Of a stretch of 59,902 bases of DNA, positions 22,315 through 59,902 are shown in pieces (the stretch's first letter is position 1; every line of letters starts with the position of its first letter). Under the pieces are notes generated by a model. It ran no database searches, was not told where the DNA came from, and saw only the letters and a list, made by a program, of their open reading frames with translations. The stretch spans positions 1 to 59,902 of the IMG/VR virus record IMGVR_UViG_3300025323_000513. One strand, given 5' to 3'. A program made the position numbers and the translations under genes. This stretch comes from a virus. Taxonomy: Duplodnaviria; Caudoviricetes.

Positions 22315-22410
22315 CTAGACTAATCTACCGGCAGCAATGACATGATTTACGAGGGTGTATGTGTACCCTAGTTCATTGCTGTACCATGTCAGCTGTTTAG
22401 ACCTTTTCAT
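22315..22410 (-). CDS. Putative 31-aa leaderless ORF spanning att
   Basis: TGA-TACAAT extended -10 lies 7 nt before ATG; MKRSKQLTWYSNELGYTYTLVNHVIAAGRLV. Confidence 0.4.
   Translation of the reverse strand: MKRSKQLTWYSNELGYTYTLVNHVIAAGRLV
22331..22386. repeat. att junction between prophages B and A; recoded gap 3' end
   Basis: 40/56 nt identical to 59772-59827 with a perfect 10-bp core; minus strand encodes WYSNELGYTYTLVNHVIAA. Confidence 0.85.
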
Positions 22411-22580
22411 GGAGCTTATTGTATCACTTTTTCGAGAAAAAACCTCGCCCGCTCACCTGCTAAAATTCCGAGGACATCTCAGAAACTCAGCAGGCGAGCG
22501 AAGTGTGTAGTTGTCAAAGGACTTACAACTACGATTTTACCCGAACTCCTGACACATAGCAAGCAACAAAACGGACATTG

Positions 22581-22820
22581 TTAACAACTCATCAGGCCAG
22601 GATATTTGCTTTTGACAACCCCTGAAGATTGGGCTTTTTTGTCTCCCCTTTTAGCCTTTTCCCGTATGTATATTTCATGCACGGTTGATCGGGACAGGAA
22701 TTTCCCGGTCTTTTTATTCTTGTAGCGTTTCGCAAGACTCGCAAACGTATGAAGGACCGGATCGAGGTCATGCAACCTTACGATCTCGTCGTTCCTTTTC
22801 TGATGTGGCTGATTTGCCAT
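22581..22820 (-). CDS. Small basic HTH-like protein (regulator or excisionase candidate)
   Basis: KRNDEIVRL...TFASLAKRY...LSRSTVHEIY; between integrase and att; palindrome TTCGATTT-GTGA-AAATCGAA next to TATGAT upstream. Confidence 0.65.
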   Translation of the reverse strand: MANQPHQKRNDEIVRLHDLDPVLHTFASLAKRYKNKKTGKFLSRSTVHEIYIREKAKRGDKKAQSSGVVKSKYPGLMSC

Positions 22821-22864
22821 ATACGACTAATCATATTCGATTTTCACAAATCGAAAAGTAGGAA

Positions 22865-24004
22865 TTATACTTTTGACCACTTTCCGCCTCCTGGCGTGCG
22901 TACGACAGTCGCTCTTTTGGGAGCATTTATAAACTGATGATGCGATGGGACGTTTCCTTTTTGCATGTACTCGATAAAGTTTTCGAGGACTTCTTGTGCG
23001 TTGTCCAGACCATCCATGCTAGCAAGGCTTTTAAGATTTTTATTGAGTCTAGCCTTATCTTGTTTCGGATTACCTGGGTTATTCTTTTGGAATACCTGCC
23101 ATCTCTCCTTCAGGTCATTCCCCCACATCATGGTGTAGAACTGTGAGCTCTCAAGGTTTGAGTGTCCGAGGATGTTAGTAACGTCTGCACTTGCTCCACC
23201 CTCTTTGATAATCTTGCGACCTCCATAATGTCGAGCGGAGTGTGCATTGAAGATGGTCGGCAAACCAGCACGATTTGAGGTCATACGGAATACTTCACAA
23301 ACTCCACGTCCGGTCATTCGTTTACCGCGCACATCGTATGCCGCACATTTTCTAATTGAGGTAAATACTGCACCCTGATCTTCGAATGTCATCTTGTCTT
23401 GAATCTGGGATTTTTTCTTCAACCATGCTTTTAGATATTTTCCTGTTTGTGCTGTCCAGAATATTTCTCGGATAGGTCGGCGACCTCTCGACTTCTCTGT
23501 TTTAATAATTGCAGAGCCCGAGCAGTCCTTATTGAACACAAGGTCTTCTTCATTGAGCGAGACAATTTCGCCGGCGCGTGCCCACGAATCCCATACTATG
23601 TGTATCAGAGCAAGGTTTCGAATATTGTTTGGATTCGTATCGCGCGGGACCGCTTTCACCATCTTCTTAAAGTCTGCCTCATTTGCCACTCGAGGAATAT
23701 TGAATTCCTTTTTAGGTAACGGGATGAGTGATTCGTTGACGCATCGATATCCCTTTAGATTGTAGTATTCAAAAAACTTTCTCAATGCAAGAGCAACAAT
23801 CGTTATGCCATTTCTTTTCCACCCTAAACGCTCCATTTCTTTCATGTAATGGAGGATGTGATGTATTTGTACTTGCTCAATATCGGGGTCACCGAATGTT
23901 AAGCAAAAAATACGGAGGACCGCATCGTAGCGGATCACCGTTTGGCCAGAGACTTTAAAGCCTCTCCAATTTTTAAATTCTTCTATTGCTTCGCTAAATT
24001 TCAT
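22865..24004 (-). CDS. int: Tyrosine integrase
   Basis: RNLALI...ARAGE, HSARH, LGHSNL...Y catalytic residues; start MKFSEA. Confidence 0.92.
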   Translation of the reverse strand: MKFSEAIEEFKNWRGFKVSGQTVIRYDAVLRIFCLTFGDPDIEQVQIHHILHYMKEMERLGWKRNGITIVALALRKFFEYYNLKGYRCVNESLIPLPKKEFNIPRVANEADFKKMVKAVPRDTNPNNIRNLALIHIVWDSWARAGEIVSLNEEDLVFNKDCSGSAIIKTEKSRGRRPIREIFWTAQTGKYLKAWLKKKSQIQDKMTFEDQGAVFTSIRKCAAYDVRGKRMTGRGVCEVFRMTSNRAGLPTIFNAHSARHYGGRKIIKEGGASADVTNILGHSNLESSQFYTMMWGNDLKERWQVFQKNNPGNPKQDKARLNKNLKSLASMDGLDNAQEVLENFIEYMQKGNVPSHHQFINAPKRATVVRTPGGGKWSKV

Positions 24005-24240
24005 ATTATGGCCAACCAAAAAGTCCACCCAGATGCTAATCAAAGTGGACTTTTGGCGGCCTAATACTAATTAGTTTTTGGCCATTCCCAAGCTTGGGAT
24101 CATACCCTCTCGGGTATGCTCTCTCATCTTACTCTATTCCTTGTGGACATAGCAAGATGATGCTCGGGTCAAAGTCTCATTGTTAGCATCTGCCGTTTCC
24201 GGCTGATCCCTTTCGGGACAATGGAATCTTATTCGGTTGT
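24004..24240 (-). ncRNA. Structured integrase leader RNA with motif copy 2 (24178-24223) and complementary-loop hairpin (24004-24066)
   Basis: Five consecutive stem-loop elements between promoter and int ATG. Confidence 0.7.
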
Positions 24241-24247
24241 GCACTCT

Positions 24248-24276
24248 ATCCTAGTAGAGTGTGTACCTATTGTCAA
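24248..24276 (-). promoter_or_regulatory. Sigma70 promoter of leader RNA/integrase
   Basis: TTGACA-17 nt-TAGGAT. Confidence 0.75.
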
Positions 24277-24358
24277 GAAGGACAATGTATGGTTTAAAGT
24301 TTAACAACTAGAAAGTCTATAAAGTCAATTAAAATAAGGGTTTTTTGAAGGTACAAGA

Positions 24359-24391
24359 AAAATGTCGCATCACCTTTTGGGTGATGCGACA
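24359..24391 (-). terminator. Terminator after PRTase gene
   Basis: TGTCGCATCACC-CAAAA-GGTGATGCGACA then TTTTT. Confidence 0.8.
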
Positions 24392-24414
24392 GGTGTTTAA
24401 CAGATGAGGACGAA

Positions 24415-25416
24415 TTATTTGAGCATTTTTAACCTATTTTCCAAAAAGCCGACGATTTCCATGCCTAACGATGGCGGGCTTTGGTGAGAGCCGATTTCGA
24501 TAGGTAAAGAAACCCTTGGATTCTGCCCCAGGAGCTCTCCTATCGTCATTTTCTGCCCCACACGGCCGAATAACTCGATACTTGTCTCTAGGCAAAGCCT
24601 CGACAAATCTCGAGCCCCCTCAATCGGTAGGCTTGCCCACTCCTCGATCTTGCCGAATGGCAGGATATAAGGATAAGCACAGCTTGAGCCGTCCGCAGTT
24701 CGGACTGGCATAAAGCCGTGCGAGACAGGCTCTCCAAGGACACGTCCGCAGTTCGGGATGAATGGGATGAGGTCGTGGTCAGGAATCCAGTCGAGAAGGT
24801 TCTCGATCGGATGCACTATCACAAGCTCACCCTTGAAGACATGGCCGAGAACAAACTTTGCTCTTGTGCAACAGAATCCGATTACAATTGCCGTGACTGT
24901 GATACCTCGACTATTGAGCTCATGAAGTACGAATCGAAGAGTGCCACCACTGAATGCACCATCTTCGATGAGAACAACAGAACGACCGGCGATTTTCTTT
25001 GCCAGGTCGTCGAATTTCTTATCGAGAGGCCTGAAACCAGGACGAGGACCATGCCCGATCAACTGTCCGTCTGTGTTGAACAGCCGGTTGATGTTGAGGA
25101 GTAGACCTTCGCTTTTCGGATTTGAGTTGGCGATTTCTGGGCATGTGCTGAGGACCGCCTGCTGACCAAGGTCAGTGATACGGGCATCAACTTGCTCCCA
25201 GATTTTGCGCCGGAGTTCACTCATCTCGATCGTGTCGATCGTAATGCCTGGTAGAGCCTGCTGTATCTTTTGAAACAGGCCCATGTGAAAACGTTCGAAC
25301 AATTGATCGTCCGGACGCGGGATTGTGAGCGTCTTCGGGCGGAATGCCTGAAGACGACTTGCCACGTCATAGGTAACCACGTAGGTCCCATGACGAGTCG
25401 GTTGGACTATTTGCAT
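24415..25416 (-). CDS. Phosphoribosyltransferase-domain protein
   Basis: VVLIEDGAFSGGTL PRPP-binding loop. Confidence 0.75.
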   Translation of the reverse strand: MQIVQPTRHGTYVVTYDVASRLQAFRPKTLTIPRPDDQLFERFHMGLFQKIQQALPGITIDTIEMSELRRKIWEQVDARITDLGQQAVLSTCPEIANSNPKSEGLLLNINRLFNTDGQLIGHGPRPGFRPLDKKFDDLAKKIAGRSVVLIEDGAFSGGTLRFVLHELNSRGITVTAIVIGFCCTRAKFVLGHVFKGELVIVHPIENLLDWIPDHDLIPFIPNCGRVLGEPVSHGFMPVRTADGSSCAYPYILPFGKIEEWASLPIEGARDLSRLCLETSIELFGRVGQKMTIGELLGQNPRVSLPIEIGSHQSPPSLGMEIVGFLENRLKMLK

Positions 25417-25505
25417 GGGACCCTCCTTTTGGTTTTTGGTTTGTGAATGAAAAAGAACTGATATTGTCAGTCCTTAGTTTAACTTTTTCTGAGTGTTAGA
25501 GCGAA

Positions 25506-25826
25506 TTATTTTTGCTCATCCTTCATTCGCTCAATCATCATCTTGTATCCACCTGTTCCTTCCTTAAGCCAACGACTGATTTTTGCGATTGTAGCCATCG
25601 CCTCACCAGAGCTTTCCTGAATCTTTTCATAAGTTTCGCCGGCATCCAGTTTCTTTGCAACTTCCCATCGCATTGCGAATTCTCGCAAGTCTCTCTCACT
25701 CATGAGATCCCTGAAAAACATCTTTAATTCTTCTTCATTTTTCAACGACAAAAAGACCTTTAGTAAATCAGGGGATTTTTCCTTGATCTCTGCCCATATT
25801 CCATTTTTTTCTTCTTCTGGGATCAT
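25506..25826 (-). CDS. TrpR-like (YerC/YecD) protein
   Basis: FFRDLMSERDL..FAMRWEVAKKL..GETYEKI..SG...ATIAKISRWL..GTGGY. Confidence 0.85.
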   Translation of the reverse strand: MIPEEEKNGIWAEIKEKSPDLLKVFLSLKNEEELKMFFRDLMSERDLREFAMRWEVAKKLDAGETYEKIQESSGEAMATIAKISRWLKEGTGGYKMMIERMKDEQK

Positions 25827-25905
25827 ACGTTCCTTAAGTATACCAATTTTCAGGCGCGAAGTGGAGAGTTGAGGATTTCTTTACCTTTTCTTTATTAAAA
25901 ATTGA

Positions 25906-26289
25906 CTATTCCACGAGCTTGAAATCCCTCATTTCTTCCTGTGCCCTATCTAAATCCTCGCATACCCTTGCTGCTACATCCTTTGTTTTCTGGCTGTCTC
26001 TGTTCTCAAAAACAAACTCCACATCATCGTCATCTATAAAAGTTGCCAGAGATATATAGGCGGCGGCGAGTAATTTCATTCTCTCTCTCAGAGCCTGTTT
26101 CATTTTAGCTTTGGGCTGGGAAAGTTGAGAAAGCCGATTGAATATCTCGTGCCGGTTGAAAGGTATTCGAATGTGTTCGGCAACTTTGCGGACTGCCTCC
26201 ATGTCATCTTCTTCCACAGTACGAACATACCGAGAAGAGATTTTGAAGTCTAGGAGGACTTTACCAACAGACCTCTGGTTTCTCTCCAA
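25906..26289 (-). CDS. Hypothetical protein (start uncertain)
   Basis: ORF fills the gap between sppA and the TrpR-like gene. Confidence 0.5.
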   Translation of the reverse strand: MERNQRSVGKVLLDFKISSRYVRTVEEDDMEAVRKVAEHIRIPFNRHEIFNRLSQLSQPKAKMKQALRERMKLLAAAYISLATFIDDDDVEFVFENRDSQKTKDVAARVCEDLDRAQEEMRDFKLVE

Positions 26290-27130
26290 TTTTTTCCTCG
26301 ATATAGTTTTTCACTTCAGTATATCCACCAATGCTATCGATTAAGCCGAGCTCCTTTGCGCGCTCTCCAAGAATCGAAGAACCGTCAGCTATTGCTTGAA
26401 CTTTCTCAATCGGAATATTTCTATTGGTTGAGACATCTTGGATAAAGTTTTCATGGATAATTTTCAAGTCTCGAATAATGAGAGTTTTTTCTTCGTCAGT
26501 GAGCGTCTTGTCTGGACTACCGGCATCTTTGTATTTACCCGCGCTCAGCTGGATGTATTTGAGCCCTTCTTTTTCATTCTTCGAAACGTTATCGAGATAG
26601 GATGTTGTGACCCCAATGCTACCCACATCGGAATTCTTTGATGCGAATATCTGATCAGCTGTGGTGATTGCCCAATATGCTGCCGAAGTTCCGCTCTGGC
26701 GAATAAAGGCCACTACAGGCTTACTTGATGCCTTTATTGCATTGGCTACTTCTTCGCCTGCGACAGGATAACCTCCGAGAGAATCCACTTCCACAATAAC
26801 AGCTTTGATATTTTCATCATCTTCAGCAGATTCTAGCAAGCCCATTATTTCTTCACTCCCTACCACATCTTTATTGCTCATTAATTCATCGTCGTTGCTT
26901 TCAGGTACGTATGTATAGAGGTCGCCATGAAGATTGATGCCTAAGACGTTGCATGAGGAAGTGTCTTCATCTTCTGAATATTCGGATGCCACTGTGTCCA
27001 GCTTGAACGAGTCGTATACAGCCTCACTAGCAATGCTCATTGCAAAAAAGAGTATCAAAACACCGACGACATAGAATTTTCGTCGGTGTTTGTGTACAAA
27101 TTCGAGGGCTTTTTTCTCTGACTGCTGCAT
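26261..27130 (-). CDS. sppA: Signal peptide peptidase SppA (S49)
   Basis: N-terminal TM; VDSLGG, SAAYW, VGSIGV, AGKYKD, ADGS, GLID. Confidence 0.9.
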   Translation of the reverse strand: MQQSEKKALEFVHKHRRKFYVVGVLILFFAMSIASEAVYDSFKLDTVASEYSEDEDTSSCNVLGINLHGDLYTYVPESNDDELMSNKDVVGSEEIMGLLESAEDDENIKAVIVEVDSLGGYPVAGEEVANAIKASSKPVVAFIRQSGTSAAYWAITTADQIFASKNSDVGSIGVTTSYLDNVSKNEKEGLKYIQLSAGKYKDAGSPDKTLTDEEKTLIIRDLKIIHENFIQDVSTNRNIPIEKVQAIADGSSILGERAKELGLIDSIGGYTEVKNYIEEKIGEKPEVCW

Positions 27131-27166
27131 ATATGGAGTAAGTTTATCAGCTTTTGAGCTCGTCCG

Positions 27167-28201
27167 CTAATCAGACGTTTTTCCAGTTACAGAAACAACA
27201 GGAGCACCCTTGCTTGCAACCACAATTTCTTCTTTTATGAGTAGGTTTACCCAGTCTTCAGTATAAATATAATCCTTATGGACCATATCGTACTGACAAT
27301 ACTTTGATGTGGTTTTTGTCTTATTCTGGTCGTTTGTGGCAGGTCTTACCGCATATTTTCTCCACATGTCGGTATGCCAGTTTGAGCTTTTCTCGATACC
27401 AGTCCTTTCAAGTATTGTCTTCAGAATATCTTTTGGTTTGTATTTGCCTTGATTGGCTACTGGGACCTGCTTTTCTTTGATCAGTGCCTGAATCTTTTCA
27501 AAGTTTTCTTTTTGATTCTTGTCTGCAAGGTCAAAGTTTACAAATTCAACAGCTAGGTCTGATGAGTTTCTGTGATTTCCAATTTTAGGTATAAGGAATA
27601 CCTTGAATGAAAACTCTTGCGAGTCTCGAACCACGCGCGATATAGAACTTCTGTGATTCTTAATGAAATCAATCACATCCTGTCCATCCTGCGTAACCGG
27701 AATCTTTCTTTTAAAGTTACTGATCTGTAGAGGGATATTCAAATGGTCAACAATAGAATGCTTATTGGAAAATTCCTTGATCAAAAGGCTCTCATAGTTA
27801 ATCAAAAAGGCTTGGCACTCTCCGAGGACATGACTATCTATTTCCGGAATAAATCTATGCTCGATTTTATTTCTGAGTTTCGCCATAAACTCAATGTTTC
27901 GGAAGATAGGATTTGTCTGATGCTGAAAATATTGCTCGGCACACTTCACCAGTTCCCAAGCCTTATAGTCTCCATCGACTGTTTCGTAACGAATCGAATT
28001 TTTTCTTTTGTAGTAATACTTGACCCCCCTTCTTTCAAAAACTGCATGAAAAAAAGCCGTGTACGCTATACACATTAAGGTTATGTATGCGAAGGATTTA
28101 AAGGCTGTTCTCGGCTTGTTGTAAACTTCGACGGCAAGTAGCGAGGAGTCTTTAGATTTTTCTAGTAGTAGAGCTACTTTTTTGGGTAATCGGCCAGCCA
28201 T
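27167..28201 (-). CDS. DUF3644-like HEPN-domain protein
   Basis: AVEVYNKP N-terminus; RNKIEH Rx4H motif. Confidence 0.75.
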   Translation of the reverse strand: MAGRLPKKVALLLEKSKDSSLLAVEVYNKPRTAFKSFAYITLMCIAYTAFFHAVFERRGVKYYYKRKNSIRYETVDGDYKAWELVKCAEQYFQHQTNPIFRNIEFMAKLRNKIEHRFIPEIDSHVLGECQAFLINYESLLIKEFSNKHSIVDHLNIPLQISNFKRKIPVTQDGQDVIDFIKNHRSSISRVVRDSQEFSFKVFLIPKIGNHRNSSDLAVEFVNFDLADKNQKENFEKIQALIKEKQVPVANQGKYKPKDILKTILERTGIEKSSNWHTDMWRKYAVRPATNDQNKTKTTSKYCQYDMVHKDYIYTEDWVNLLIKEEIVVASKGAPVVSVTGKTSD

Positions 28202-28213
28202 AGATTTTCATGA

Positions 28214-29572
28214 TTATTTCTTTATCTTTACAGTCACAAGGTATTTGATTGGCATGATGGTAACCCCTAGAATCTCATTTGCGAATGGATTCGGCATTCG
28301 ATAGATGAGTGGAGTTGGTGAAGTGTAATCAAAAACGATGTAGAGATGATAATTTGGATTCTTCTGGGCAATGAGGACTTCGTTCTCAGAGATATAGAAT
28401 CTGAAAGTGAGTCCTGGCTTGCTCTTTACTGCCTTCACTTCGATATGCTTTTCTGATCCGTCAGCATTGTAAGAAAGCACGTCGTAGCCGAGCATGTCGC
28501 TCTCCAAAGAAACCTGCTTTATTTGAGACACTAAATCAGGGCGAACCTTTGCTAGCTCCTCTGTCTCGTGTTTAATTACGATCTTTTCTGCAAAGTCGCC
28601 GGCTACCCTATTCGCACCATCTCGCAATTCGAAGTCGATTTTGTGGGCAACAACATGTGCCCTCTTTCTTGGGACCGTACTGGTATCGACATCTTCATCA
28701 ATTTCGATATTTACAGTCTGAGGATGTACGCTGTCGATATCAGGCAAAAGAGAAGGCTCTCCAACTAGCTTATTGATTATTTCCTCCTGTTCTTCGGTGG
28801 ATCTCTTTTCAAGATTTTCTATCACACGCAAGTAGTTTGGGTTGAGAGTGTAGATTTGCCATCCATTGTTTGAAGTAAGGTATGGGAAGTATCCCTCATC
28901 GCTGAAGTCTCGGACCGAGAAACTCTCGAGGACTACCTCGATGTCTTTCTTTGAAAGGTTGGAAACAATTTTGTTGTCCGCATCCTTTTGGATATATGAG
29001 GAAATAAGAAGCATATCGAAGAATCGTTTTACGTTGTCAGCAAAATCTCCTATTCCGAGCTCCTGGCTCTTTTCCTCGAGTGCTTTGAGGTAAACATCTT
29101 TATTTGGAGATACTCTAAATTCTTCTATCAGCTTTATTGCCGTGGGTATTTCATCTTTGCTATTGATCCAACAAACGAAGAGTCGGTACTCGTCAAAGGA
29201 AATGTGGTCAAGCGTGTATAAGATATGCAACAATACCTCCATTGGAGCAATCTTGATTGAAAGATTGTCATTGAGTTTTGCACAATCGAGATAAACTTTC
29301 ATGACCTGCTCGTCGAGTATCTTTTGCTTGTATGGAGAATGCAGAAAAGTCTCGCCGGCATTCGAGATTTGCAAATTGTCGCCTCCGAGGTTAATCACGA
29401 GACCGAGATATCTCAAGGTAATACTGTTTCGTGTAGTGAGCTGATTAAAATCAGTCGTCAAATCAGCGTGAATTTTATTCACAGCATCACTGGTATATTC
29501 CTTTTGCTTTGCTTTCTTCCAAAAGTTTCCAGTGCCTTTGTTTTCTAAAAAATGTTTGTATTCGTTCTCCAT
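28214..29572 (-). CDS. Putative restriction nuclease: recognition domain + DUF3883-type PD-(D/E)xK domain
   Basis: GDFAEKIV...GYDVLS...HIEVKA...FYISENE. Confidence 0.8.
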   Translation of the reverse strand: MENEYKHFLENKGTGNFWKKAKQKEYTSDAVNKIHADLTTDFNQLTTRNSITLRYLGLVINLGGDNLQISNAGETFLHSPYKQKILDEQVMKVYLDCAKLNDNLSIKIAPMEVLLHILYTLDHISFDEYRLFVCWINSKDEIPTAIKLIEEFRVSPNKDVYLKALEEKSQELGIGDFADNVKRFFDMLLISSYIQKDADNKIVSNLSKKDIEVVLESFSVRDFSDEGYFPYLTSNNGWQIYTLNPNYLRVIENLEKRSTEEQEEIINKLVGEPSLLPDIDSVHPQTVNIEIDEDVDTSTVPRKRAHVVAHKIDFELRDGANRVAGDFAEKIVIKHETEELAKVRPDLVSQIKQVSLESDMLGYDVLSYNADGSEKHIEVKAVKSKPGLTFRFYISENEVLIAQKNPNYHLYIVFDYTSPTPLIYRMPNPFANEILGVTIMPIKYLVTVKIKK

Positions 29573-29574
29573 AA

Positions 29575-32263: not shown

Positions 32264-32331
32264 AGTTATTAAAACGGGGTATGTACCGTCACACACGACA
32301 CATACCAAGAAACCCATCGAATAGCAATGAC

Positions 32332-35301: not shown

Positions 35302-35382
35302 TCAATGTGCATGCTCGAGCCATATCGCATAAGCGAACAGGAACATTGCGATTGCTATGAGGATTTGTGATGCATACCTCAT
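35302..35382 (-). CDS. 26-aa single-TM peptide
   Basis: MRYASQILIAIAMFLFAYAIWLEHAH; ATGA overlap with endolysin stop. Confidence 0.7.
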   Translation of the reverse strand: MRYASQILIAIAMFLFAYAIWLEHAH

Positions 35383-35984: not shown

Positions 35985-35987
35985 AAA

Positions 35988-49070: not shown

Positions 49071-49087
49071 AAATTTAATTTAATTAA

Positions 49088-51106: not shown

Positions 51107-51115
51107 GATGTTTTG

Positions 51116-51153
51116 AGTATGAGCGTGAAAATTGTTCTTTCTGTAGGAATTAC
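51116..51153 (-). promoter_or_regulatory. Late promoter motif (portal)
   Basis: GTAATTCCTACAG-19 nt-CATACT-9 nt-ATG. Confidence 0.75.
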
Positions 51154-51159
51154 TTTCAT

Positions 51160-53329: not shown

Positions 53330-54641
53330 GCTCGTATAAGGTCTTTGGCCACATTTCGGACTGGCCGTTCCGGACTACCTGTTCTATGCCGGTGAAATCT
53401 ACCCATCGCTGGACGATTACGTCGACGAACTTCGGGTCGAGTTCGATGCCCGCACAAACACGGCCGGTTTTCTCGCAAGCGATGAGCGTGCTACCGCTAC
53501 CGAGAAATGGATCAACAATTAAATCTTCTGCTTTGGAACTGTTGAAGATTGCATACGTTATTAGTTCGACTGGCTTTTGTGTTGGATGCAGGTACTCATT
53601 CACTTTGTCTCGCCGCATTGTCCAAATCGTGAGCTTTCCTTCAGTCTCAAGTTTCTTTTGTCGTTTTGCCCAATTGATTAGTTTCTGTTCACTATCCTGG
53701 AAGTCGATAATTGTTGAATGTGTGCGATCACCATAGAAGACTGTTTTAGTTCCATCCTTTGATGCGTAGAAGAACGGCTCATGTTTCCATCGGTAGTCGC
53801 CCCACCCCATCGATGCTGTTGGCTTATTCCAGATGAGCTGGTTTCGAATAGCCATTCCGTATTTTTTTAACGCCTTCTCGAATTGTGCTTGTGTTGATGT
53901 TGAGTGGAAGACATACCAACCCGCACCAGTCTTTGCCACCTCAGCGAGACATCCGAATGCTCTCTCGAGGAATGAATCAAATGCCTCTGCATCCATATCG
54001 TCATTCATGATTCCCTCGCTTGTTTTCTTTCCTCGCCCTGAGTAATTCACGTTGTATGGTGGATCGGTAAAGATGCAGTCTGCTTTCCTTTGCTGGACCG
54101 ACTTGTCATAGGCATCTTTGTCAGTTGAATCTCCACAGACAACAGTGTGCGGACCGAGTTGGTATACGTCACCTATTTTTGTTTTCGGCTCTATGGGCGT
54201 TTCGGGAACTATGTCATCTTTCTCATCGTCTTCGAGAATGATGTCTCTATCAAAGCCTGTGAGAGTGATATCGAATCCTGCGGCATCGAGGTCTTTGAGC
54301 TCATCAGTTATGAGTACCATGTCCTGACCAGTGAGTGCGTTGAGTTGATTGTCTGCTATTCGATACGCTTTGATTTCGTCTTCGTTCAGGTCATCGACCA
54401 TGACATAAGGGATTGCTGCCTCACCTTTCTTCGTGAATGCCTTTTGCTCCATGAGCGTGTAGCCGAGGAGTTCGGTCATTGCAATAAAGCGTCCGTGCCC
54501 TGCAACTATCACACCCGCAGCATCGAGGACGATCGGTTGCTTACATCCGAATGCTTTTATCGAACTTGCGATTTTCTCAAGCTGAAAGCCTGGGTGTTCT
54601 TTGGCATTCTTATCGTATTTTTTTACGTCAGTTATTTGCAT
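53313..54641 (-). CDS. ParB-domain amino-DNA methyltransferase
   Basis: AGHGR, YRIADN, DPPY, HPTQKP, DPFLGSG. Confidence 0.92.
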   Translation of the reverse strand: MQITDVKKYDKNAKEHPGFQLEKIASSIKAFGCKQPIVLDAAGVIVAGHGRFIAMTELLGYTLMEQKAFTKKGEAAIPYVMVDDLNEDEIKAYRIADNQLNALTGQDMVLITDELKDLDAAGFDITLTGFDRDIILEDDEKDDIVPETPIEPKTKIGDVYQLGPHTVVCGDSTDKDAYDKSVQQRKADCIFTDPPYNVNYSGRGKKTSEGIMNDDMDAEAFDSFLERAFGCLAEVAKTGAGWYVFHSTSTQAQFEKALKKYGMAIRNQLIWNKPTASMGWGDYRWKHEPFFYASKDGTKTVFYGDRTHSTIIDFQDSEQKLINWAKRQKKLETEGKLTIWTMRRDKVNEYLHPTQKPVELITYAIFNSSKAEDLIVDPFLGSGSTLIACEKTGRVCAGIELDPKFVDVIVQRWVDFTGIEQVVRNGQSEMWPKTLYEHDPEE

Positions 54642-54642
54642 A

Positions 54643-55053
54643 TTAGTTTTTTTCCATCCAACCCACCATGCTCGACTCGTTGCATGCACCAACTTTGCCG
54701 TCATCGTCGATGTACTCATAGGTGGGTTTGCCTTTTTCTGTTGGCAGGATGCCGATTACAAGACGCTCTATTCCTTTTCTGTTGCGACAGATAGTACCGA
54801 AGGTGTAAGTCATCTTTTGATTTGGATTCTTCTTTTCCCAATGATGGCGGAGTGCTGCGAAGAATTCTCCTTGGACCGTTTCAAGGAAGGCGATAATTGC
54901 TCCCCTGCTGTCTGTTTTGAAAATTGGCAGGAGACTATGTGCGCCGATAATCCAAGCACCGACAAAGTCCGGACGTGCCGTAAGGAATCTTGCCGATAGG
55001 CTTATTGGATTCAGCACGGGTTTTGTTTCTTTTTTTGTGTTCTTTTTTGGCAT
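54643..55053 (-). CDS. Hypothetical protein
   Basis: In operon. Confidence 0.65.
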   Translation of the reverse strand: MPKKNTKKETKPVLNPISLSARFLTARPDFVGAWIIGAHSLLPIFKTDSRGAIIAFLETVQGEFFAALRHHWEKKNPNQKMTYTFGTICRNRKGIERLVIGILPTEKGKPTYEYIDDDGKVGACNESSMVGWMEKN

Positions 55054-55068
55054 ATGAATTAATTATTT

Positions 55069-55452
55069 TTAATGGTTATGACATGTCGCATCTGACTCGA
55101 GTATTTCATTGCAGACACTGCATCTCTTAATCCAGAGATGATGCGCGCACGCCTGTCTCTTTCTTTCTTGCCCGAGCATCTGAATATATTCGTAAGAGCC
55201 TTTTACTTTCTTCAGGTATTTTTCTTTCTGTCTCTCCCTGTAGACCTTTACTATTTCTTCAGGCATGTACTTTGGCATTGCAACCCTTCGAACCCATCCG
55301 TTGTTCCCTGCGTGGAATCTAATCGCGCGAGGATCAACTTTGAAGAAACGTGATATCCACAGAATCTTCCAGCCACAGTCTTCATACTGCTTTCTAGCCT
55401 CATCGATTTGTGAGGCATTTAATTTGTGCCGTGGGTTATTTGCGTTGAACAT
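55069..55452 (-). CDS. HTH + Cys/His protein (late regulator candidate)
   Basis: KLNASQIDEARKQY...ISRFFKVDPRAIRFH; C-terminal CAH..CSVC. Confidence 0.6.
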   Translation of the reverse strand: MFNANNPRHKLNASQIDEARKQYEDCGWKILWISRFFKVDPRAIRFHAGNNGWVRRVAMPKYMPEEIVKVYRERQKEKYLKKVKGSYEYIQMLGQERKRQACAHHLWIKRCSVCNEILESDATCHNH

Positions 55453-56659
55453 AGCTTTTTCTAGACCCAGTGAAGAGGAGTTTTCCGATGATTGCCTGGA
55501 CCGCGTTCACTGTTACCGCATTGCCTAGGGTTTTATATCTTTGCGAATCACTTACGCCTTTCGTCCATCCATCCGGGAAGCCTTGGAGTCGTTCGCATTC
55601 TGTGGGAGTGAGTCTTCGTATCTTCATATCTGGAGTTAACGTGTGCTGTTGCATTCCGGTATCCAGTGTCTGCGCTACGTCGCTCACTCTGCCTCGCCGA
55701 GTCTTGCTATTCGGGACTGCAAGATTTATTGATTGACCGACCTTCGCCTCCGCATATCCCTTCTTGGTCGCCTCTTTAATGCGGACGGCATACAATCCTG
55801 TCTTTGCTCCGAGACCACCGGCTTGACTTGCAAGCGTGACGGAGATTCCTCTCGGATCGTAGACTCTATTTCCTTGACTACCGCCTATGATTTGACGTGG
55901 CGATCTTTTACCAACATAAGTTCCGTTTGAGTCAGCGGTAACTCGTGTCGTGATGGTTGGTAGGACAATATCCTCGCTGTTGTTTTCGGTGAAAGGAAAT
56001 ACTTTTGGTCGGGCTGTTCCTCTAAGATGTCCAACAATGAACACGCGCTCCCGATTCTGTGGGACTCCGAAATTCTTTGAGTTAAGCACCTGCCACTGAA
56101 TGTCGTACCCCAATTTTGCAAGCGTGGAGATAATGGTTTTGAAAGTGTCGCCATTGTCATGAGATAGCAATCCTTTGACGTTCTCCAATAGGACAAGCCT
56201 TGGTTTTTTACTTCTGAGAATGCGTGCGATGTCAAAAAAGAGCGTACCGCGCGTATCTTCGAAACCTTTCCTTTTACCAGCAATCGAGAAAGCCTGGCAC
56301 GGAAATCCTCCGACCAGTAGGTCGAAATCGGGCAGTTTGTTTGGTTTGATTTTTGTGATGTCTCCATAGTTTTTGTGTTCAGGGAATCGCTTTTGGTATA
56401 TCTCGATCGCATGCTTGTCGATTTCCGAGTAACCCACGCAAGTAAGCGGTTTTTGTCGTGAGCCGTTGCGGTGATTGTGTTGGCTAGTCCGTCCTCTCGA
56501 GGGACCAGAACTTTTAAGCTGCGAGTATCCTTTACCACCCCGAGTCTTCTCAGTTGCTTTGCCTCCTCGGTTCGCCTTTCGGTCAGCTGTTTCCACATAT
56601 GCGTTGAGTATGCCTAGCTCGAACCCGCCGATGCCGGAAAATAGGCTGAGATACTTCAT
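55436..56659 (-). CDS. C5-cytosine DNA methyltransferase
   Basis: All C5 motifs present; paralog of 16161-17288. Confidence 0.95.
   Translation of the reverse strand: MKYLSLFSGIGGFELGILNAYVETADRKANRGGKATEKTRGGKGYSQLKSSGPSRGRTSQHNHRNGSRQKPLTCVGYSEIDKHAIEIYQKRFPEHKNYGDITKIKPNKLPDFDLLVGGFPCQAFSIAGKRKGFEDTRGTLFFDIARILRSKKPRLVLLENVKGLLSHDNGDTFKTIISTLAKLGYDIQWQVLNSKNFGVPQNRERVFIVGHLRGTARPKVFPFTENNSEDIVLPTITTRVTADSNGTYVGKRSPRQIIGGSQGNRVYDPRGISVTLASQAGGLGAKTGLYAVRIKEATKKGYAEAKVGQSINLAVPNSKTRRGRVSDVAQTLDTGMQQHTLTPDMKIRRLTPTECERLQGFPDGWTKGVSDSQRYKTLGNAVTVNAVQAIIGKLLFTGSRKSYVQRK
55885..56598 (-). CDS. Alternative-frame ORF inside the C5 methylase
   Basis: 237 aa; homologous to 16517-17227. Confidence 0.7.
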   Translation of the reverse strand: MWKQLTERRTEEAKQLRRLGVVKDTRSLKVLVPREDGLANTITATAHDKNRLLAWVTRKSTSMRSRYTKSDSLNTKTMETSQKSNQTNCPISTYWSEDFRARLSRLLVKGKVSKIRAVRSFLTSHAFSEVKNQGLSYWRTSKDCYLMTMATLSKPLSPRLQNWGTTFSGRCLTQRISESHRIGSACSLLDILEEQPDQKYFLSPKTTARILSYQPSRHELPLTQTELMLVKDRHVKS

Positions 56660-57060
56660 TGCTCATTTGAGTTGAGGACTATCTCCACTTCGACCCGTCC
56701 TTTTCCATCGGACGCATAGTGAGATTCGAATGCCCCATCAAGGAACTTATCGTTTTGGAAGAGCGCATCAGCAAGCCCTTTGAAGACATTGTCTGGGTCT
56801 GCATGCACTCCATTGACCCAATAGATAACGATGGACATCTTTGCCCTTGCTGATATTTTTGTGGTGAGAGGTTGTGTGGTTTCGAACTTGAACTCAGGAT
56901 ATTCACGATAGAAAATACTGCGGACGTATTCTTTCCATGCGTGGTATTTCTTTGCCTTTGGTAGCCAGAGTGCTCTGCCTACTACTCGGACATACGGGAC
57001 CGGATTACCTTCTATGTCTTCCGGGTTTCCTTTTATAGTGAATTTGATTGTTTTCTTCAT
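56656..57060 (-). CDS. RusA-like resolvase
   Basis: ADPDNVFKGLADALFQNDK. Confidence 0.8.
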   Translation of the reverse strand: MKKTIKFTIKGNPEDIEGNPVPYVRVVGRALWLPKAKKYHAWKEYVRSIFYREYPEFKFETTQPLTTKISARAKMSIVIYWVNGVHADPDNVFKGLADALFQNDKFLDGAFESHYASDGKGRVEVEIVLNSNEQ

Positions 57061-57068
57061 GGAGTTTT

Positions 57069-57605
57069 TTAGTGTTTAAATCTGTTAATGGTCATCTTTT
57101 GAGTGAGTTCTCGTATTTGCTTTCCAAAGTTATCCACAGGGTCCCTAATACTAGGTTTCTCTTTTTTCCCTAGATTCTGTGTGTTAACTTGCTTTACTAC
57201 TTTTGGTAAAGAGGATTTACCACTTCTGGTTAACTCTCTTAACTGGTTAATTTCGTTTACTACTTTATCCACATCCATATGCAGGTTTAGCTTGTAGCGA
57301 TTTCCCATTGATCTCTGCTGTACTGAAATGACTCCAACTTTGATGAGATTTTGGAGTGCTGTGTTTACTGATGGACGAGACAATCCTGTGCCGTAATCCA
57401 AGCGTCTACCCTGGCTCGTCTTGATGCCGTTTTCGAATTGAGAAAAACTGATGTTGTCTTCGACCTTATGAAAACCGAAAGTGCGTCTACATATGTAAAG
57501 TAGGCATCGAGCCTCTGCCTCGGATATGCGAGGAAGAACAAGATCCAAAATTACATTTGGAATCTGGGAGCTATTTGGTATTAAGTTTTGGTGTTTTTCG
57601 TCCAT
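57069..57605 (-). CDS. Replication initiator (lambda O-like N-terminal domain)
   Basis: Paralog of 19355-19921. Confidence 0.85.
   Translation of the reverse strand: MDEKHQNLIPNSSQIPNVILDLVLPRISEAEARCLLYICRRTFGFHKVEDNISFSQFENGIKTSQGRRLDYGTGLSRPSVNTALQNLIKVGVISVQQRSMGNRYKLNLHMDVDKVVNEINQLRELTRSGKSSLPKVVKQVNTQNLGKKEKPSIRDPVDNFGKQIRELTQKMTINRFKH
57130..57273. repeat. Putative replication origin B: four GTWAA-N5-TTWAC iterons plus two DnaA boxes
   Basis: Iterons start at 57183, 57206, 57229, 57246; TTATCCACA at 57130 and 57265. Confidence 0.8.
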
Positions 57606-57664
57606 AGTTTTTTGGAAGAGAGAAGACATCGATTGCTCGATGTTCTTCCCTGGTTAGTGCGGGG

Positions 57665-57724
57665 GCTTAGCCCCCGATCTCAGCCCTCATGCCACTGCGA
57701 TCAGGGCTGAGTCAGTGGCCAAGC
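57665..57724 (-). ncRNA. Conserved structured element upstream of rep (copy B)
   Basis: Matches 19961-20020. Confidence 0.65.
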
Positions 57725-57734
57725 TACTTAGTTG

Positions 57735-58925
57735 TTACTTGCCACTTTTCACTGCAGCCTTGGCTGGCTTTTTGGGCTTATCTTCTGTCTTTGAATCTCG
57801 AAGGTCTTTTTCGAACTTCTGTTCAGGTGTCGGCTCAGGCACTTGTTCGCCTTTCAATTCAGCGATCTTCTTCTGAGCAAATTCCTGTACTCGTGCGAAT
57901 CCGTCCTCGAGGACATCTGGTCGCATCGACTCTATTGCGGACCAGCTGCGGGTCTGGAAGGCGTACTCAAGCGCATCAGTTTTGTTTTTCTTTTCCTGTG
58001 CGCCTGTGCTTGGCCAGATTGATACGAGGTAACCCTCGATTTCCTCAAGCCATCGCTTTCTTTCAAGGACCCACTTACGCTTATCTTCTTCTGTGCGGAT
58101 CAACTCTCCGGCATCTCGCACTGCTGGGCTAAAACGTGCGGTTGCAGGGTCTTTGATGACTGCCTCGATTGCCGGTGCAAAGTCCTCGTAGGTAGGGTTT
58201 TTGAAGACCTTTCCGTCCAAGAGATTGCCTCGACCCTTGAGGACAGTTGCCTGTCGCCACACCTCTCGGTTTTTTCGAGTGATGAGCTCATGGCGTTCCA
58301 TCAATACCAAGACATCGAATTCGTATGCGGCGTTTTTCTCTGCCTGCATCTTTACTCCGGTCTTGGTAAATTCCTTGCGACCATCCTCATCTACTTCCTG
58401 TTCCATTCGATCCGACACACGCCCTGTGGCGATGATGTGGAGTGGCGACTGGACCATTGGTATTGAGAAGTTTCGGTTCCAGTCGGACTTGATTGCCATC
58501 CAGTCTTGGATTTGGAACGTCTGGCGATTAAGCTTTCGCTTGTACGCCTCTTGGAAGTCCATCCAGATGTGAGTGATACTGTCGATCACCACAATGTCTG
58601 AATATCCATCCGTACAGAGTTTCATTGCCGTTACCAAGTCAGCGAGCGAGTGTGTCTCGCGCACCACCGCCTCAATCCCATGCTCTTTGAAAAGCGGGAC
58701 CAAAAACTTTGATGCTTTCTCGGTGTCGATAAGGACAATTGGCTTTGTACTTGCGATCTTCTTGTGAAGACCGATTGCTACTAATGCGGCACTCCAGCTT
58801 TTGCCTGTGCCCGGCTCTCCCTCAAAGGCTGCTTTGAAGTAGGGCTTTGTGTTTCCGATTGCGGTGAAGAAACTTTCTTCGTCCACTATCGGGACCACCT
58901 TCCTTTCTAATGTTTGTGTTGTCAT
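57735..58925 (-). CDS. AAA_24/Sak4-like ATPase
   Basis: GEPGTGKS, VVIDSITHIW, YEFD. Confidence 0.8.
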   Translation of the reverse strand: MTTQTLERKVVPIVDEESFFTAIGNTKPYFKAAFEGEPGTGKSWSAALVAIGLHKKIASTKPIVLIDTEKASKFLVPLFKEHGIEAVVRETHSLADLVTAMKLCTDGYSDIVVIDSITHIWMDFQEAYKRKLNRQTFQIQDWMAIKSDWNRNFSIPMVQSPLHIIATGRVSDRMEQEVDEDGRKEFTKTGVKMQAEKNAAYEFDVLVLMERHELITRKNREVWRQATVLKGRGNLLDGKVFKNPTYEDFAPAIEAVIKDPATARFSPAVRDAGELIRTEEDKRKWVLERKRWLEEIEGYLVSIWPSTGAQEKKNKTDALEYAFQTRSWSAIESMRPDVLEDGFARVQEFAQKKIAELKGEQVPEPTPEQKFEKDLRDSKTEDKPKKPAKAAVKSGK

Positions 58926-58938
58926 AGTTTTTTAGCTA

Positions 58939-59010
58939 TTGACTCCACGAAGGGGTCTTTGATACGATGTATCTACGGTAAGAGGCCTCCTTCGGGGGGT
59001 CTTTTATTTT
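58939..59010 (+). ncRNA. Putative tiny antisense RNA unit, copy B
   Basis: TTGACT-18-TACGAT, then cUUCGg hairpin and T tract. Confidence 0.6.
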
Positions 59011-59297
59011 TTGAATAATTTAGTAATTCGCTTATCTGCCTCAGTCAGCATCGTTTTGTTGATCTGACTCATGATTTCTTTGAGCAATGCATCTCTGATG
59101 ATTCCGTGTGCCATGGTGATAGCTAGGTCATCTTCAGGATCAACATTGGTCAGCTTTCCCATGAGTTCGCCTGTGTAATGGGCTACCTCATCGAGGGCTT
59201 CTGGAAGGATTCGCTCATCGACTATTGCCGGAGCTCTATCTTTGACCAGTTTCAACGCCTCCCTCGCTAGCGTTCTCATCTTTTCTTGATTCGGCAT
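59004..59297 (-). CDS. Conserved hypothetical early protein
   Basis: Paralog of 21259-21561. Confidence 0.8.
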   Translation of the reverse strand: MPNQEKMRTLAREALKLVKDRAPAIVDERILPEALDEVAHYTGELMGKLTNVDPEDDLAITMAHGIIRDALLKEIMSQINKTMLTEADKRITKLFKK

Positions 59298-59538
59298 TGT
59301 TTGATTCTTGAATTCGCTGCAATTGAAACTCTTTTTTCTCTTTGCGCTTTTTTTGGTTTTGAAGGCTTAGAGGAGTATTCTTCTGCAATCGAATTTCTTT
59401 AGGCTGATAATTGATATCGACTTGATCGCCTATGCTGAGTCGATATTTTGTCGTGAGCCATTTACCTTCAAGGATTAAGGCTGGTATGCCTGGTCGCCTG
59501 TAGGTAACAGCTCGTGTGGTGTTGAGTGTTTTCTTCAT
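59236..59538 (-). CDS. SymE-like (AbrB-fold) protein
   Basis: PALILEGKWL; paralog of 21491-21796. Confidence 0.65.
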   Translation of the reverse strand: MKKTLNTTRAVTYRRPGIPALILEGKWLTTKYRLSIGDQVDINYQPKEIRLQKNTPLSLQNQKKRKEKKEFQLQRIQESNNAESRKDENASEGGVETGQR

Positions 59539-59582
59539 TGTTAGCATCTGGACCCGTCGGACCGATCCCTTTCGGGACAATG
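59536..59582 (-). ncRNA. Three-way-junction RNA motif, copy 3
   Basis: CATTGT-CCC-GAAA-GGG-ATC..CAGATGCTA-ACAATG. Confidence 0.75.
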
Positions 59583-59631
59583 ATTAATTGGCTAGTAATT
59601 TCGACCTTTTTGGTGAACTGCGGAGCAATAC

Positions 59632-59661
59632 AAAAAGCCCCGCTTTTCAGCGAGGCTTTTT
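59632..59661 (-). terminator. Terminator after gap (B)
   Basis: AAAAAGCCTCGC-TGAAAA-GCGGGGCTTTTT. Confidence 0.75.
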
Positions 59662-59683
59662 CTTCGATATTGTGATTTAAGCT

Positions 59684-59902
59684 CTATTTCTGTCCGTCCC
59701 GGCCATTTGTCCAAATGCCTGCGTTTATCCTCATCTGTCTCCCTTCTTCTTCTGGGAGGAGGTAGGATGCCGCCGCAATGACATGGCGAACCAATGTATG
59801 GGTGTACCCTATTTCGTTGTCATACCAAGCTAAAACCTTCACCAAATCACCCCCGACTACTCTGGTAAACGTCAGATCAGCAATCGAGGCGTGCTTGTTC
59901 CC
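59684..59902 (-). CDS. gap: Glyceraldehyde-3-phosphate dehydrogenase, 3' end (partial; integration target)
   Basis: Hand translation GNKHASIADLTFTRVVGGDLVKVLAWYDNEIGYTHTLVRHVIAAA contains the GAPDH KV.AWYDNE.GY signature. Confidence 0.92.
   Translation of the reverse strand, partial: GNKHASIADLTFTRVVGGDLVKVLAWYDNEIGYTHTLVRHVIAAASYLLPEEEGRQMRINAGIWTNGRDGQK

Follow-up and report, generated by a model that had tools for sequence, protein, structure and literature searches.

The window analysed here (the whole stretch of 59,902 nucleotides, positions 1 to 59,902 of IMG/VR record IMGVR_UViG_3300025323_000513) carries at its right edge, on the minus strand, the final 72 codons of a gene for GAPDH (gap), the translation of 59681–59902 ending in VKVLAWYDNEIGYTHTLVRHVIAAASYLLPEEEGRQMRINAGIWTNGRDGQK before the stop. 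By itself this 72-residue fragment had no Pfam match at 1e-3; 35 of 44 residues were identical to residues 278–321 of a relative's 325-residue protein, which matches both Gp_dh_N (PF00044) and Gp_dh_C (PF02800). A second copy of the gap tail, without a gene, lies at 22315–22386, 37,441 bp from the gap copy (the minus-strand translation of 22312–22500 ends in MKRSKQLTWYSNELGYTYTLVNHVIAAGRLV before the stop, and a stop codon stands 14 codons ahead of the W); both versions are present as an earlier note on this DNA had described. The two were recovered by a repeat search of the window as repeat family D12 (22331–22386 and 59772–59827; 56 nt, 40 of them identical (71%), spacing 37,441), and their 10-mer core, GTGTACCCTA, occurs in the window only at 22361–22370 and 59802–59811 (chance expectation 0.02), reproducing the identity, perfect core and spacing first reported for the pair. 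Behind each tail come a hairpin with a U run, a 14-mer found in the window only at 22222–22235 and 59596–59609 (chance expectation 0.05) and an early operon, the order that had been claimed for both sides; the hairpins were detected by folding, neither being picked up by a simple terminator scan of the window, and the two early operons share 74–88% DNA identity in many blocks. Neither an Rfam family nor a tRNA gene was found anywhere within the window, so the attachment site is not of the tRNA type. The junction features, from right to left, are:

59812–59902, minus strand: host part of the GAPDH gene (gap), about the last 30 codons, to ...AWYDNEI; the body runs past the right edge (80% identity to GAPDH residues 278–321)
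59802–59811: gap-side junction core GTGTACCCTA (minus strand TAGGGTACAC, codons x-G-Y-T; repeat and exact-match search)
59805–59809: putative crossover GGGTA, gap side (junction comparisons among relatives)
59684–59801, minus strand: phage-B-supplied gap tail, (T)HTLVRHVIAAASYLLPEEEGRQMRINAGIWTNGRDGQK and stop, 24 residues over native (translation versus native tails)
59620–59670, minus strand: terminator after the gap/B tail, hairpin and U run (−21 kcal/mol, z −4.45)
59596–59609, minus strand: 14-mer box AAAGGTCGAAATTA before the B early operon (similar boxes in relatives)
22361–22370: second junction core GTGTACCCTA, B/A junction (repeat and exact-match search)
22315–22360, minus strand: phage-A-type gap tail, (T)YTLVNHVIAAGRLV and stop, displaced from the gene by B (same tail at the gap junction of genome G264)
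22236–22290, minus strand: terminator after the A tail, hairpin and U run (−16.1 kcal/mol, z −2.3)
22222–22235, minus strand: 14-mer box, second copy (exact match)

Between the two junctions lies a tailed temperate phage unit, B, with terminase, SU10-type portal and adaptor, amidase and integrase, which together make up a complete-looking prophage of 37.4 kb:

22371–59801, minus strand: prophage B, repeat unit 37,441 bp (Pfam and PHROG matches)
53313–59538, minus strand: early/replication module (AAA_24/Sak4-like, Rep-O-like, RusA, C5 and N4/N6 methyltransferases)
51160–52839, minus strand: terminase
49088–51106, minus strand: SU10-type portal
44945–45568, minus strand: SU10-type adaptor
38520–40127, minus strand: tail/LysM protein
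35379–35984, minus strand: amidase
24415–34791, minus strand: cargo region, flanked by lysis genes and integrase
22865–24043, minus strand: tyrosine integrase (PF00589 and phrog_1)
22581–22820, minus strand: 79-residue ORF right after the integrase, a candidate excisionase or regulator from its position only
22371–22566, minus strand: integrase-side arm of the B attachment site, ending ...MKRSKQLTWYSNEL (identical over at least 30 nt, to GGGTA, in loci L001 and L011)

The cargo comprises a helicase-nuclease (mREase_IV-like), N6/N4 and C5 methyltransferases, a PD-T4-1/PDC-S36-like protein, PDC-S19 (DUF3644), an S49 peptidase, a Trp-repressor-like protein and a PRTase-like protein. The integrase matched PF00589 at 64.4 bits (cut-off 27.1; E = 1.5e-17) and the phrog_1 integrase at 4.4e-21, and candidates picked by eye for the catalytic R...HxxR...Y residues of tyrosine recombinases are WARAGE, HSARH and LGHSNLESSQFY. 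The 79-residue ORF had no match in Pfam or PHROG and is 58–82% identical across 14 related loci, and a remnant 87% identical to the B arm was found in locus L069. The assignment of integrase and cargo to B was borne out by relatives, the order integrase, small ORF, GAPDH tail being found in 13 of the 14 related loci with downstream sequence.

Left of the second junction, a further set of tailed-phage genes, built differently from B, represents the right-hand part of prophage A:

1–22221, minus strand: prophage A, right-hand 22 kb only, the rest beyond the left window edge (Pfam and PHROG; collinear with a 46-kb prophage in G264)
18549–22210, minus strand: early operon
16161–18595, minus strand: methyltransferases
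14176–15627, minus strand: terminase
11624–13819, minus strand: HK97-type portal
9299–11669, minus strand: protease and capsid
5767–6756, minus strand: tail tube
1104–1940, minus strand: baseplate/collar
287–898, minus strand: amidase

The A-like prophage of G264 is 81–83% identical to A in DNA over 13 kb, ends ...YTLVNHVIAAGRLV and stop at its gap junction and bears a native-type tail, ...EHVIKAGRLI and stop, at its far end. Judged only from G264, the cargo, integrase, far junction and native tail of A would lie left of the window.

Relatives of the B integrase at 54–94% identity were found in Patescibacteria metagenome-assembled genomes (MAGs) only, and all 17 genome loci with integrase relatives belong to such MAGs. 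A gap tail fragment stood about 0.5 kb past the integrase at 13 of the 17, that is, at 13 of the 14 with downstream sequence (three of the remaining four have none, and the fourth, L015, has an integrase only 43% identical). Integrases at 43–45% identity (L015 and G207) were not adjacent to gap, and the INPHARED phage collection held only relatives below 27% identity (10 records). The survey proposed in the earlier note shows a family-wide association between this integrase and gap, and the idea of gap as a reusable attB held up in the wider layout: in six genomes or records a single gap gene is followed, after 35–45 kb, by integrase and tail fragment (gap-to-integrase distances of 35.4–37.1 kb in G001–G003, 44.7 kb in G264 and 44.5 kb in G192; 36.9 kb in an IMG/VR record, L023/G014, rated 100% complete), and a homologous early operon directly follows gap in nine loci (L018–L022, L026, L029, L032 and L045). 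The closest relatives of B are L001, L002 and L011. A displaced 3' fragment at the integrase end is present in 13 of the 14 related loci that have downstream sequence, and in the window this fragment is the A tail. None of the 13 related integrase–tail loci had a second phage downstream, so tandem arrays are not common; the pattern of two tails 331–361 nt apart was found in none of 401 genomes of an order-level sample.

Measured from the W, the gap tail is 47 residues long with B proximal and 23 residues long in the A or native version, the 24-residue extension being read at the window's own gap/B junction. The longer frame claimed for B proximal is present, with the extension adjusted to 24 residues, the earlier figure of 27 being the count after HVIAAA. 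In the comparison with prophage-free alleles that the earlier note had proposed, prophage-free relatives end ...EHVIKAGRL[IV] and stop. More broadly, 27 gap tails of the family sample without these phages' early-gene homologues downstream end G[RKM]L[IVL] (one, RKLL), with a stop within 1–2 codons; the LVNH tail occurs in none of these 27 and was found only at L045 (G264), with an A-like prophage downstream. This recurrence of ...YTLVNHVIAAGRLV and stop where an A-like prophage meets gap supports the claim that each phage carries its own tail, and the comparisons show that these tails are phage-borne and that the A-type tail at 22315 moves with A-type phages. Exactly one gap match was found in 57 of 61 related genomes; in lysogens the single gap gene is the copy at the prophage junction, and the frame stays open to a stop in the window and at nine lysogen gap loci. 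The enzyme would presumably be functional with either tail.

Junction comparisons among relatives also bear on where strands are exchanged. The phage-side sequences of B, L001 and L011 are identical as far as GGGTA and divergent beyond it; one phage type found in both G003 and G011 has an identical tail from GGGTATAC, with different host sides; and in G264 the block identical at both junctions is GAGATGGGGTA. When the phage-supplied tail was set against the displaced one in 12 within-genome pairs, the two had short identical blocks at most in common, except in G014. The comparisons of closely related phages across hosts locate the crossover at GGGTA, inside the 10-nt core described in the earlier note. 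A crossover at CAA, derived from a 12-letter loose end in contigs, was rejected because the phage-to-phage comparisons favour GGGTA.

Taken as a whole, the window probably derives from a Patescibacteria (Parcubacteria/Paceibacteria-type) chromosome in which two heterologous, tailed, temperate phages are inserted in tandem at gap, and covers the portion of the array nearest the gene. Tyrosine integrases of this lineage would recombine within the invariant WYDNExGYT motif, at its G-Y codons (GGGTA), some 17 codons ahead of the stop of the single-copy GAPDH gene, and the phage attachment site would carry surrogate last codons and a terminator. Because the phage site would bring its own surrogate tail, integration would leave the gap frame open, and the tail present until then would end up on the integrase side of the prophage. 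B (37.4 kb) would adjoin the gene and provide the tail with the 24-residue extension, and the tail displaced to 22315–22386 would have come from phage A, in an earlier or an independent event, the A early operon being next to it; the native tail would be expected past the A integrase, over 20 kb beyond the left window edge. The order of events, the activity of both phages and the contiguity of B with A in one cell are what we infer.

Within the window's own contig, B and A are contiguous. None of the Logan contigs listed bridges B-specific sequence (right of 22379) to A-specific sequence (left of 22315); they end between 22341 and 22378. Contigs from the B side in runs X1 and X2, either of which may be the source sample, so that they are not independent, join the B arm to 38 nt of exact A-type tail, including the N codon of LVNH. 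A junction lacking B is present in X1, X3 and X5. This junction, the sole alternative seen, joins at TTG (22376–22378, equivalent to 59817–59819), 6–8 nt from GGGTA, and differs from what precise excision would be expected to yield. Contig depth was higher on the A side than on the B side in all four runs (for example, 22–27 versus 14.5–14.9 in X1), per-bin contig depths that we do not take as copy number. The attP predicted in the earlier note was not recovered: an exact search with the B arm matched no viral contigs and two metagenome contigs, both in the integrated form, with no free attP form among the matches.

Of the tandem array as first claimed, two distinct phage units with an attachment-type junction are present, and a B/A bridge is absent among the independent contigs listed. 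The breaks at 22341–22378, the unequal depths, the A junction without B and the lack of tandems among the 13 related loci could all reflect an assembly chimera, in which two lysogen strains, one with only B and one with only A at gap, were joined by the assembler through shared tail sequence and no cell held both phages. We consider this improbable, because the native tail of a B-only strain would have to equal the phage-borne tail of A beyond the assembler's word length, whereas the B arm is fused to exact A-type tail through the N codon of LVNH, an ending found among the sampled tails only in G264 and absent from all 27 tails lacking the phage early genes, and within-genome tail pairs other than that of G014 share only short blocks. 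A true tandem might instead have formed by homologous recombination through the early or lysis modules (74–88% identical), or through a co-integrate, whether ahead of insertion or following it, rather than by two integrase events; long similar blocks are common to both phages, and an account of Mycobacterium abscessus tandem prophages discusses this route as an alternative (PMC9934374). Yet the B/A junction lies outside the shared modules and is built exactly as an attachment junction (B arm to GGGTA, then a complete tail, terminator and 14-mer box), which makes such a route very unlikely.

Hardly credible is a reading of the right-edge gap copy as a phage-borne auxiliary gene: the record has a viral classification and the window stops inside gap, with its upstream context beyond the edge, but nearly all related genomes have a single gap match, lysogens carry that very copy at the prophage junction, and host genes lie upstream of gap (for example, a histidine-kinase C-terminus in L069). 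Beyond the tandem array, a more general possibility is that the gap 3' end in Parcubacteria-type bacteria would serve as an integron-like landing pad, where not only whole phages but also compact units of 0.3–0.9 kb (a gap tail with one gene for a small membrane protein) would be inserted and stacked by phage integrases acting in trans and the phage-specified C-terminus, for instance the 24-residue extension, would alter the enzyme, a form of lysogenic conversion affecting the central metabolism of a minimal cell; we hold this to be doubtful.

Insertion of different elements at one site has precedents. Wang et al. (J Bacteriol, 1997) reportedly found two different phages, e14 and phage 21, at one icd site, and work by Williams in 2002–2003 is said to describe islands and prophages inserted successively into tRNA and tmRNA genes, each with its own gene 3' end and with displaced fragments stacked downstream. 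Those arrays target RNA genes, whereas here the target is a coding frame and a newcomer changes the sequence and length of the product. The mechanism is that known from icd, the isocitrate dehydrogenase gene of Escherichia coli, where e14 and phage 21 likewise insert into the 3' end of a gene for an enzyme of central metabolism and bring a substitute end; e14 is described as a tyrosine-integrase element with a substitute 3' end and a 163 bp displaced fragment at its other end (PMC6379469). In the window, too, the attachment site is inside a coding region, a surrogate 3' end is supplied and the frame is open. Unlike the icd case, the target is gap, the host belongs to the Patescibacteria (genome of about 0.6–1 Mb), the swap spans only ~17 codons, one tail adds 24 residues and two phages are present at once.

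Tandem occupancy has been described in M. abscessus for prophiT36-2a and prophiT36-2b, two different prophages at one attB (attB-2) that each excise separately and are proposed to have arisen from an incoming attP recombining with a resident prophage junction (PMC9934374); there the host differs, immunity is integration-dependent, the attP lies in the repressor gene and no host enzyme is recoded. Proviruses were reported in 106 of 519 groundwater Patescibacteria MAGs (PMC12960796) and prophages with predicted attachment sites in Absconditicoccaceae (10.1101/2024.03.08.584096), and the portions of these two accounts available to us name no gap site, tail replacement or tandem array. A titles-level literature search on prophage, GAPDH, CPR and Parcubacteria topics turned up no description of phage attachment at gap. 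The integration strategy is a known one, of the icd type, and what is new is the gene targeted, the phylum of the host and the tandem arrangement.

Temperate phages of the candidate phyla radiation are barely characterised and their hosts are hard to manipulate genetically. The locus defines a triple of integrase, attachment site and target (the WYDNExGYT codons of gap) across several Parcubacteria-type lineages, a testable candidate for a site-specific integration tool. The prophage share of a 0.6–1 Mb genome can be large, here about 37 kb together with 46 kb that are inferred, and the array would offer a natural example of a glycolytic enzyme, encoded by a single-copy gene, whose C-terminus is set by the last-arrived phage.

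Every long open reading frame (ORF) in the window lies on the minus strand, with the GAPDH gene (gap) entering at the right window edge and a second copy of its tail, the last codons, farther left. Prophage B (22371..59801) lies between the two tail copies, and prophage A, left of 22315, is cut by the window edge. The features needed here are:

59684-59902, minus strand: C-terminal 72 residues of GAPDH, at the right window edge
22315-22386: second gap tail copy, reading WYSNELGYTYTLVNHVIAAGRLV and then a stop codon on translation
22865-24043: tyrosine integrase of B
287-898: amidase of A

The 72-residue fragment alone is too short for a Pfam match; a related metagenome contig encodes a 325-aa protein that matches Gp_dh_N and Gp_dh_C, and the fragment is identical to its residues 278-321 at 35 of 44 positions. 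Past ...AWYDNEIGYT, its translated frame continues with HTLVRHVIAAASYLLPEEEGRQMRINAGIWTNGRDGQK to a stop codon. The copy at 22315-22386 has no preceding gene body (its W is preceded, 14 codons earlier, by a stop). Together the copies make up repeat family D12 (56 nt, 71% identical, 37,441 bp apart), and two words are confined to their sites: the 10-mer GTGTACCCTA (0.02 expected) and the 14-mer TAATTTCGACCTTT (minus strand AAAGGTCGAAATTA; two occurrences, 0.05 expected). Downstream of each tail come a hairpin with a U run, the 14-mer and homologous early genes, in that order; folding gave −21 kcal/mol (z −4.45) and −16.1 kcal/mol (z −2.3) for the hairpins, neither of which was detected by a consensus terminator scan. 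Neither tRNA genes nor Rfam families were found in the window. The tail copies, shared core, 14-mer, terminators and early operons listed in the earlier note were all recovered by translation, repeat search and folding. B-like arms also contain an ATG whose reading frame is that of the tail (MK[RKT]S[KN]xLTWY...; window 22315-22407 and the same place in the related loci L001, L002, L009, L011 and L069), so that a mini-ORF of 31 aa is predicted in the prophage, and a longer version in the attachment site of the free phage.

B encodes an early/replication module (AAA_24/Sak4-like protein, Rep-O-like protein, RusA, and C5 and N4/N6 methyltransferases), virion and lysis genes (large terminase, SU10-type portal and adaptor, LysM tail protein, amidase), the integrase with an accompanying conserved 79-aa ORF, and a 10-kb cargo block. 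This cargo includes a helicase-nuclease similar to type IV methyl-directed restriction enzymes (1.8e-79), two type II methyltransferases, a PD-T4-1/PDC-S36-like protein, a PDC-S19 protein (3.9e-125), an S49 peptidase, a Trp-repressor-like protein and a PRTase-like protein; as a whole (24415-34791) it resembles a defence island. The early operon of A is related to that of B (74-88% DNA identity in blocks), and its virion module, unlike B's, comprises an HK97-type portal, protease, capsid, tail tube and baseplate proteins. From the position of its amidase, A is truncated by the window edge directly after the lysis genes, at a point corresponding to ~35,088 in B. A C5 cytosine methyltransferase adjoins an N4/N6 methyltransferase in both early regions (A, 16161-18595; B, 53313-56659), and these pairs are the most similar long blocks between the phages (77-79% DNA identity). 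A conserved ~50-nt motif with a GAAA-loop hairpin (CATTGTCCCGAAAGGGATC...CAGATGCTAACAATG) precedes the first shared early gene of A (21818-21843) and of B (59557-59582), and lies ~155 nt before the B integrase (24198-24223); it recurs in locus L029, has no Rfam match and is a candidate operator or leader. Contigs from two public sequencing runs (X2, depth 8.6; X5, depth 6.6) represent a population variant of A without the 119-aa ORF at 21851-22210, omitting 378 nt (window 21846-22225) for 14 other letters, with four base differences nearby. The same ORF is absent from the A-like prophage of a related genome, G264.

That genome bears on which phage owns the tail at 22315. In a family-level sample, the 27 gap tails without homologues of these phages' early genes downstream end ...TLV[EDQR]HV[IV]xxG[RKM]L[IVL] (one RKLL) and reach a stop within the next one or two codons. 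The window's ...TLVNHVIAAGRLV ending, with its stop, recurs once, at the gap junction of G264, whose ~46-kb prophage is collinear with window A (81-83% DNA identity over 13 kb) and has at its far end an integrase, a phage arm (...PAWYRCEM) and the native-type tail GYTYTLVEHVIKAGRLI with a stop. This match identifies the tail at 22315 as A's own surrogate, the assignment proposed in the earlier note. By analogy, A should continue for at least 20 kb left of the window, to an integrase and native tail. Tails from B-like phages elsewhere end ...GQY[IL]K or ...GQYLKEAEAKQGK, each with a stop, or carry a 20-residue extension; gap tails of variable length, present in several lysogens, appear to be tolerated.

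Within-genome junction pairs (n = 12) are similar from the W codon on but identical only over short blocks, and therefore do not by themselves place the crossover. Comparisons between phages were more informative. The integrase-side junctions of B and its relatives L001 and L011 (integrases 94% and 92.5% identical to B's) are identical for at least 30 nt through GGGTA and differ beginning with base 3 of the Y codon, and two genomes with the same phage type (G003 and G011) have gap-side tails identical from GGGTATAC for >45 nt, preceded by differing host codons (GACAACGAAGCA versus GACAATGAAATG). In G264, the sole long block identical between both junctions is GAGATGGGGTA. Integrase-side copies usually read WYSNE, WYRNE or WYGNE, whereas all real gap genes read WYDNE. 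The phage-to-phage comparisons thus point to strand exchange at GGGTA (the G-Y codons), within the 10-nt core (22361-22370 and 59802-59811) that the earlier note had marked, and all sequence from roughly the T codon through the stop would come from the phage.

A collection of species-representative genomes yielded 17 loci with B integrase relatives, all in Patescibacteria MAGs (labelled Paceibacteria, Parcubacteria, Nomurabacteria, Taylorbacteria, Saccharibacteria and Kerfeldbacteria); relatives in a phage collection were all <27% identical. A GAPDH tail fragment, typically ...LTWYxNExGYTxTLVxHV..., follows the integrase by ~0.5 kb at 13 of the 17 loci; at the other four, either no sequence lies downstream of the integrase (L005, L016 and L017) or the integrase is only 43% identical (L015). 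The 79-aa ORF separates integrase and tail at 14 loci. A single gap gene lies 35.4-37.1 kb upstream of the integrase in G001, G002 and G003 (same contig as judged from coordinates), 36.9 kb in G014, an IMG/VR record rated 100% complete, and 44.7 and 44.5 kb in G264 and G192 (integrases 54-55% identical to B's); none of the integrases 43-45% identical to B's adjoins gap. At L018-L022, L026, L029, L032 and L045, a homologous early operon comes immediately after the gap stop; a terminator and 14-mer-like box are visible at L026 and L029, and L027 has a more divergent version. Prevalence is modest: integrase relatives (E ≤ 1e-30) occur in 6 of 201 genomes of an order-level sample, and the phages follow gap at 2 of the 30 gap loci examined in the family-level sample (61 genomes, 57 with one gap hit), where a third contig (L025) ends exactly at ...GGGTATACG. 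Two related-MAG contigs, L025 and L002, end exactly at or within the tail, as would occur if mixed site occupancy broke the assemblies.

Extra GAPDH tail fragments are also stacked without an intervening phage, immediately after gap or a prophage integrase (two each at L034 and L039, three at L055, and three at L060, where the final tail is frameshifted). Their 307-356-nt units, nearly filled by one small membrane-protein ORF ending at the next tail, may represent either scars of decay or small mobile cassettes that exploit this site. Such stacks were found at 3 of the 30 family-sample loci, and a spacing-restricted tail-pair pattern in none of the 401 genomes of another order-level sample. 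At L069 (213-2145), two small ORFs of 119 and 76 aa come after a complete gap ending in a native-type tail, and next is a remnant of 230 nt that shares 87% identity with the integrase-side arm of B (window 22337-22566) and joins a further tail at GGGTA, with host genes beyond; this unit is a minimal derivative of a B-like element.

The junction stretch was 85-99% present in each of five public runs, two of which may be the source sample, and we compared Logan contigs of four runs (X1, X2, X3 and X5) with window 12401-32400. Mismatch-free contigs cover both phages, and every one stops between 22341 and 22378; none of those listed bridges B-specific and A-specific sequence, as would suit an assembly chimera. 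In X1 and X2, contigs on the B side begin at 22341 and therefore contain the B arm joined to 38 nt of exact A-type tail, including the N codon of LVNH, which prophage-free tails lack. That start lies exactly 30 nt left of 22371. With the 31-letter words from which Logan contigs are built, such a start would be expected of a branch at 22371, where a precise gap/A junction would diverge. A-side contigs of X1, X3 and X5 reach 22378 and continue with 12 letters equal to 59820-59831, placing the A tail directly on the gap body without B. This junction corresponds to a clean 37,441-bp loss of B joined at TTG (22376-22378/59817-59819), 6-8 nt from GGGTA and not the expected product of precise excision; it could derive from another host allele, a third phage arm reading AWYDNEL or an integrase-independent deletion. 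Depth was higher on the A side than on the B side in all four runs (X1, 17.5-27 versus 14.5-14.9; X2, 21.4-30.9 versus 15.5; X3, 7.05-9.9 versus 5.3-6.6; X5, 10.9-17.1 versus 9.09-9.89), which fits cells with A and without B, only as a hint because contig depth is not copy number. We consider B and A probably a real tandem array, and a chimeric assembly unlikely.

In a tandem array of this kind, each phage would integrate inside the gap 3' end and bring a substitute end; either order of arrival accounts for the observed arrangement, with B entering the gap/A junction of an existing A lysogen or A entering the integrase-side junction of B. Genomic islands stack at tRNA and tmRNA genes, and the arrangement of A and B resembles this. 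Insertion in an enzyme gene's 3' end with a phage-borne substitute end parallels e14 and phage 21 in icd (PMC6379469), and occupation of one attB by both A and B parallels the tandem prophages of M. abscessus (PMC9934374). The mechanism is thus already known and not new. Two further sources report proviruses in 106 of 519 Patescibacteria MAGs (PMC12960796) and prophages in Absconditicoccaceae (10.1101/2024.03.08.584096). Full-text literature searches gave no report of gap as a phage attachment site, although supplements of provirus papers could list such sites.

Together, these results support the interpretation of the earlier note, in which prophages stand in tandem in gap, each with its own recoded C-terminus. 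They define an integrase together with its attB for a phylum that is difficult to work with, and indicate a large prophage load on a minimal genome, in which a single-copy glycolytic enzyme would have a phage-dependent C-terminus.
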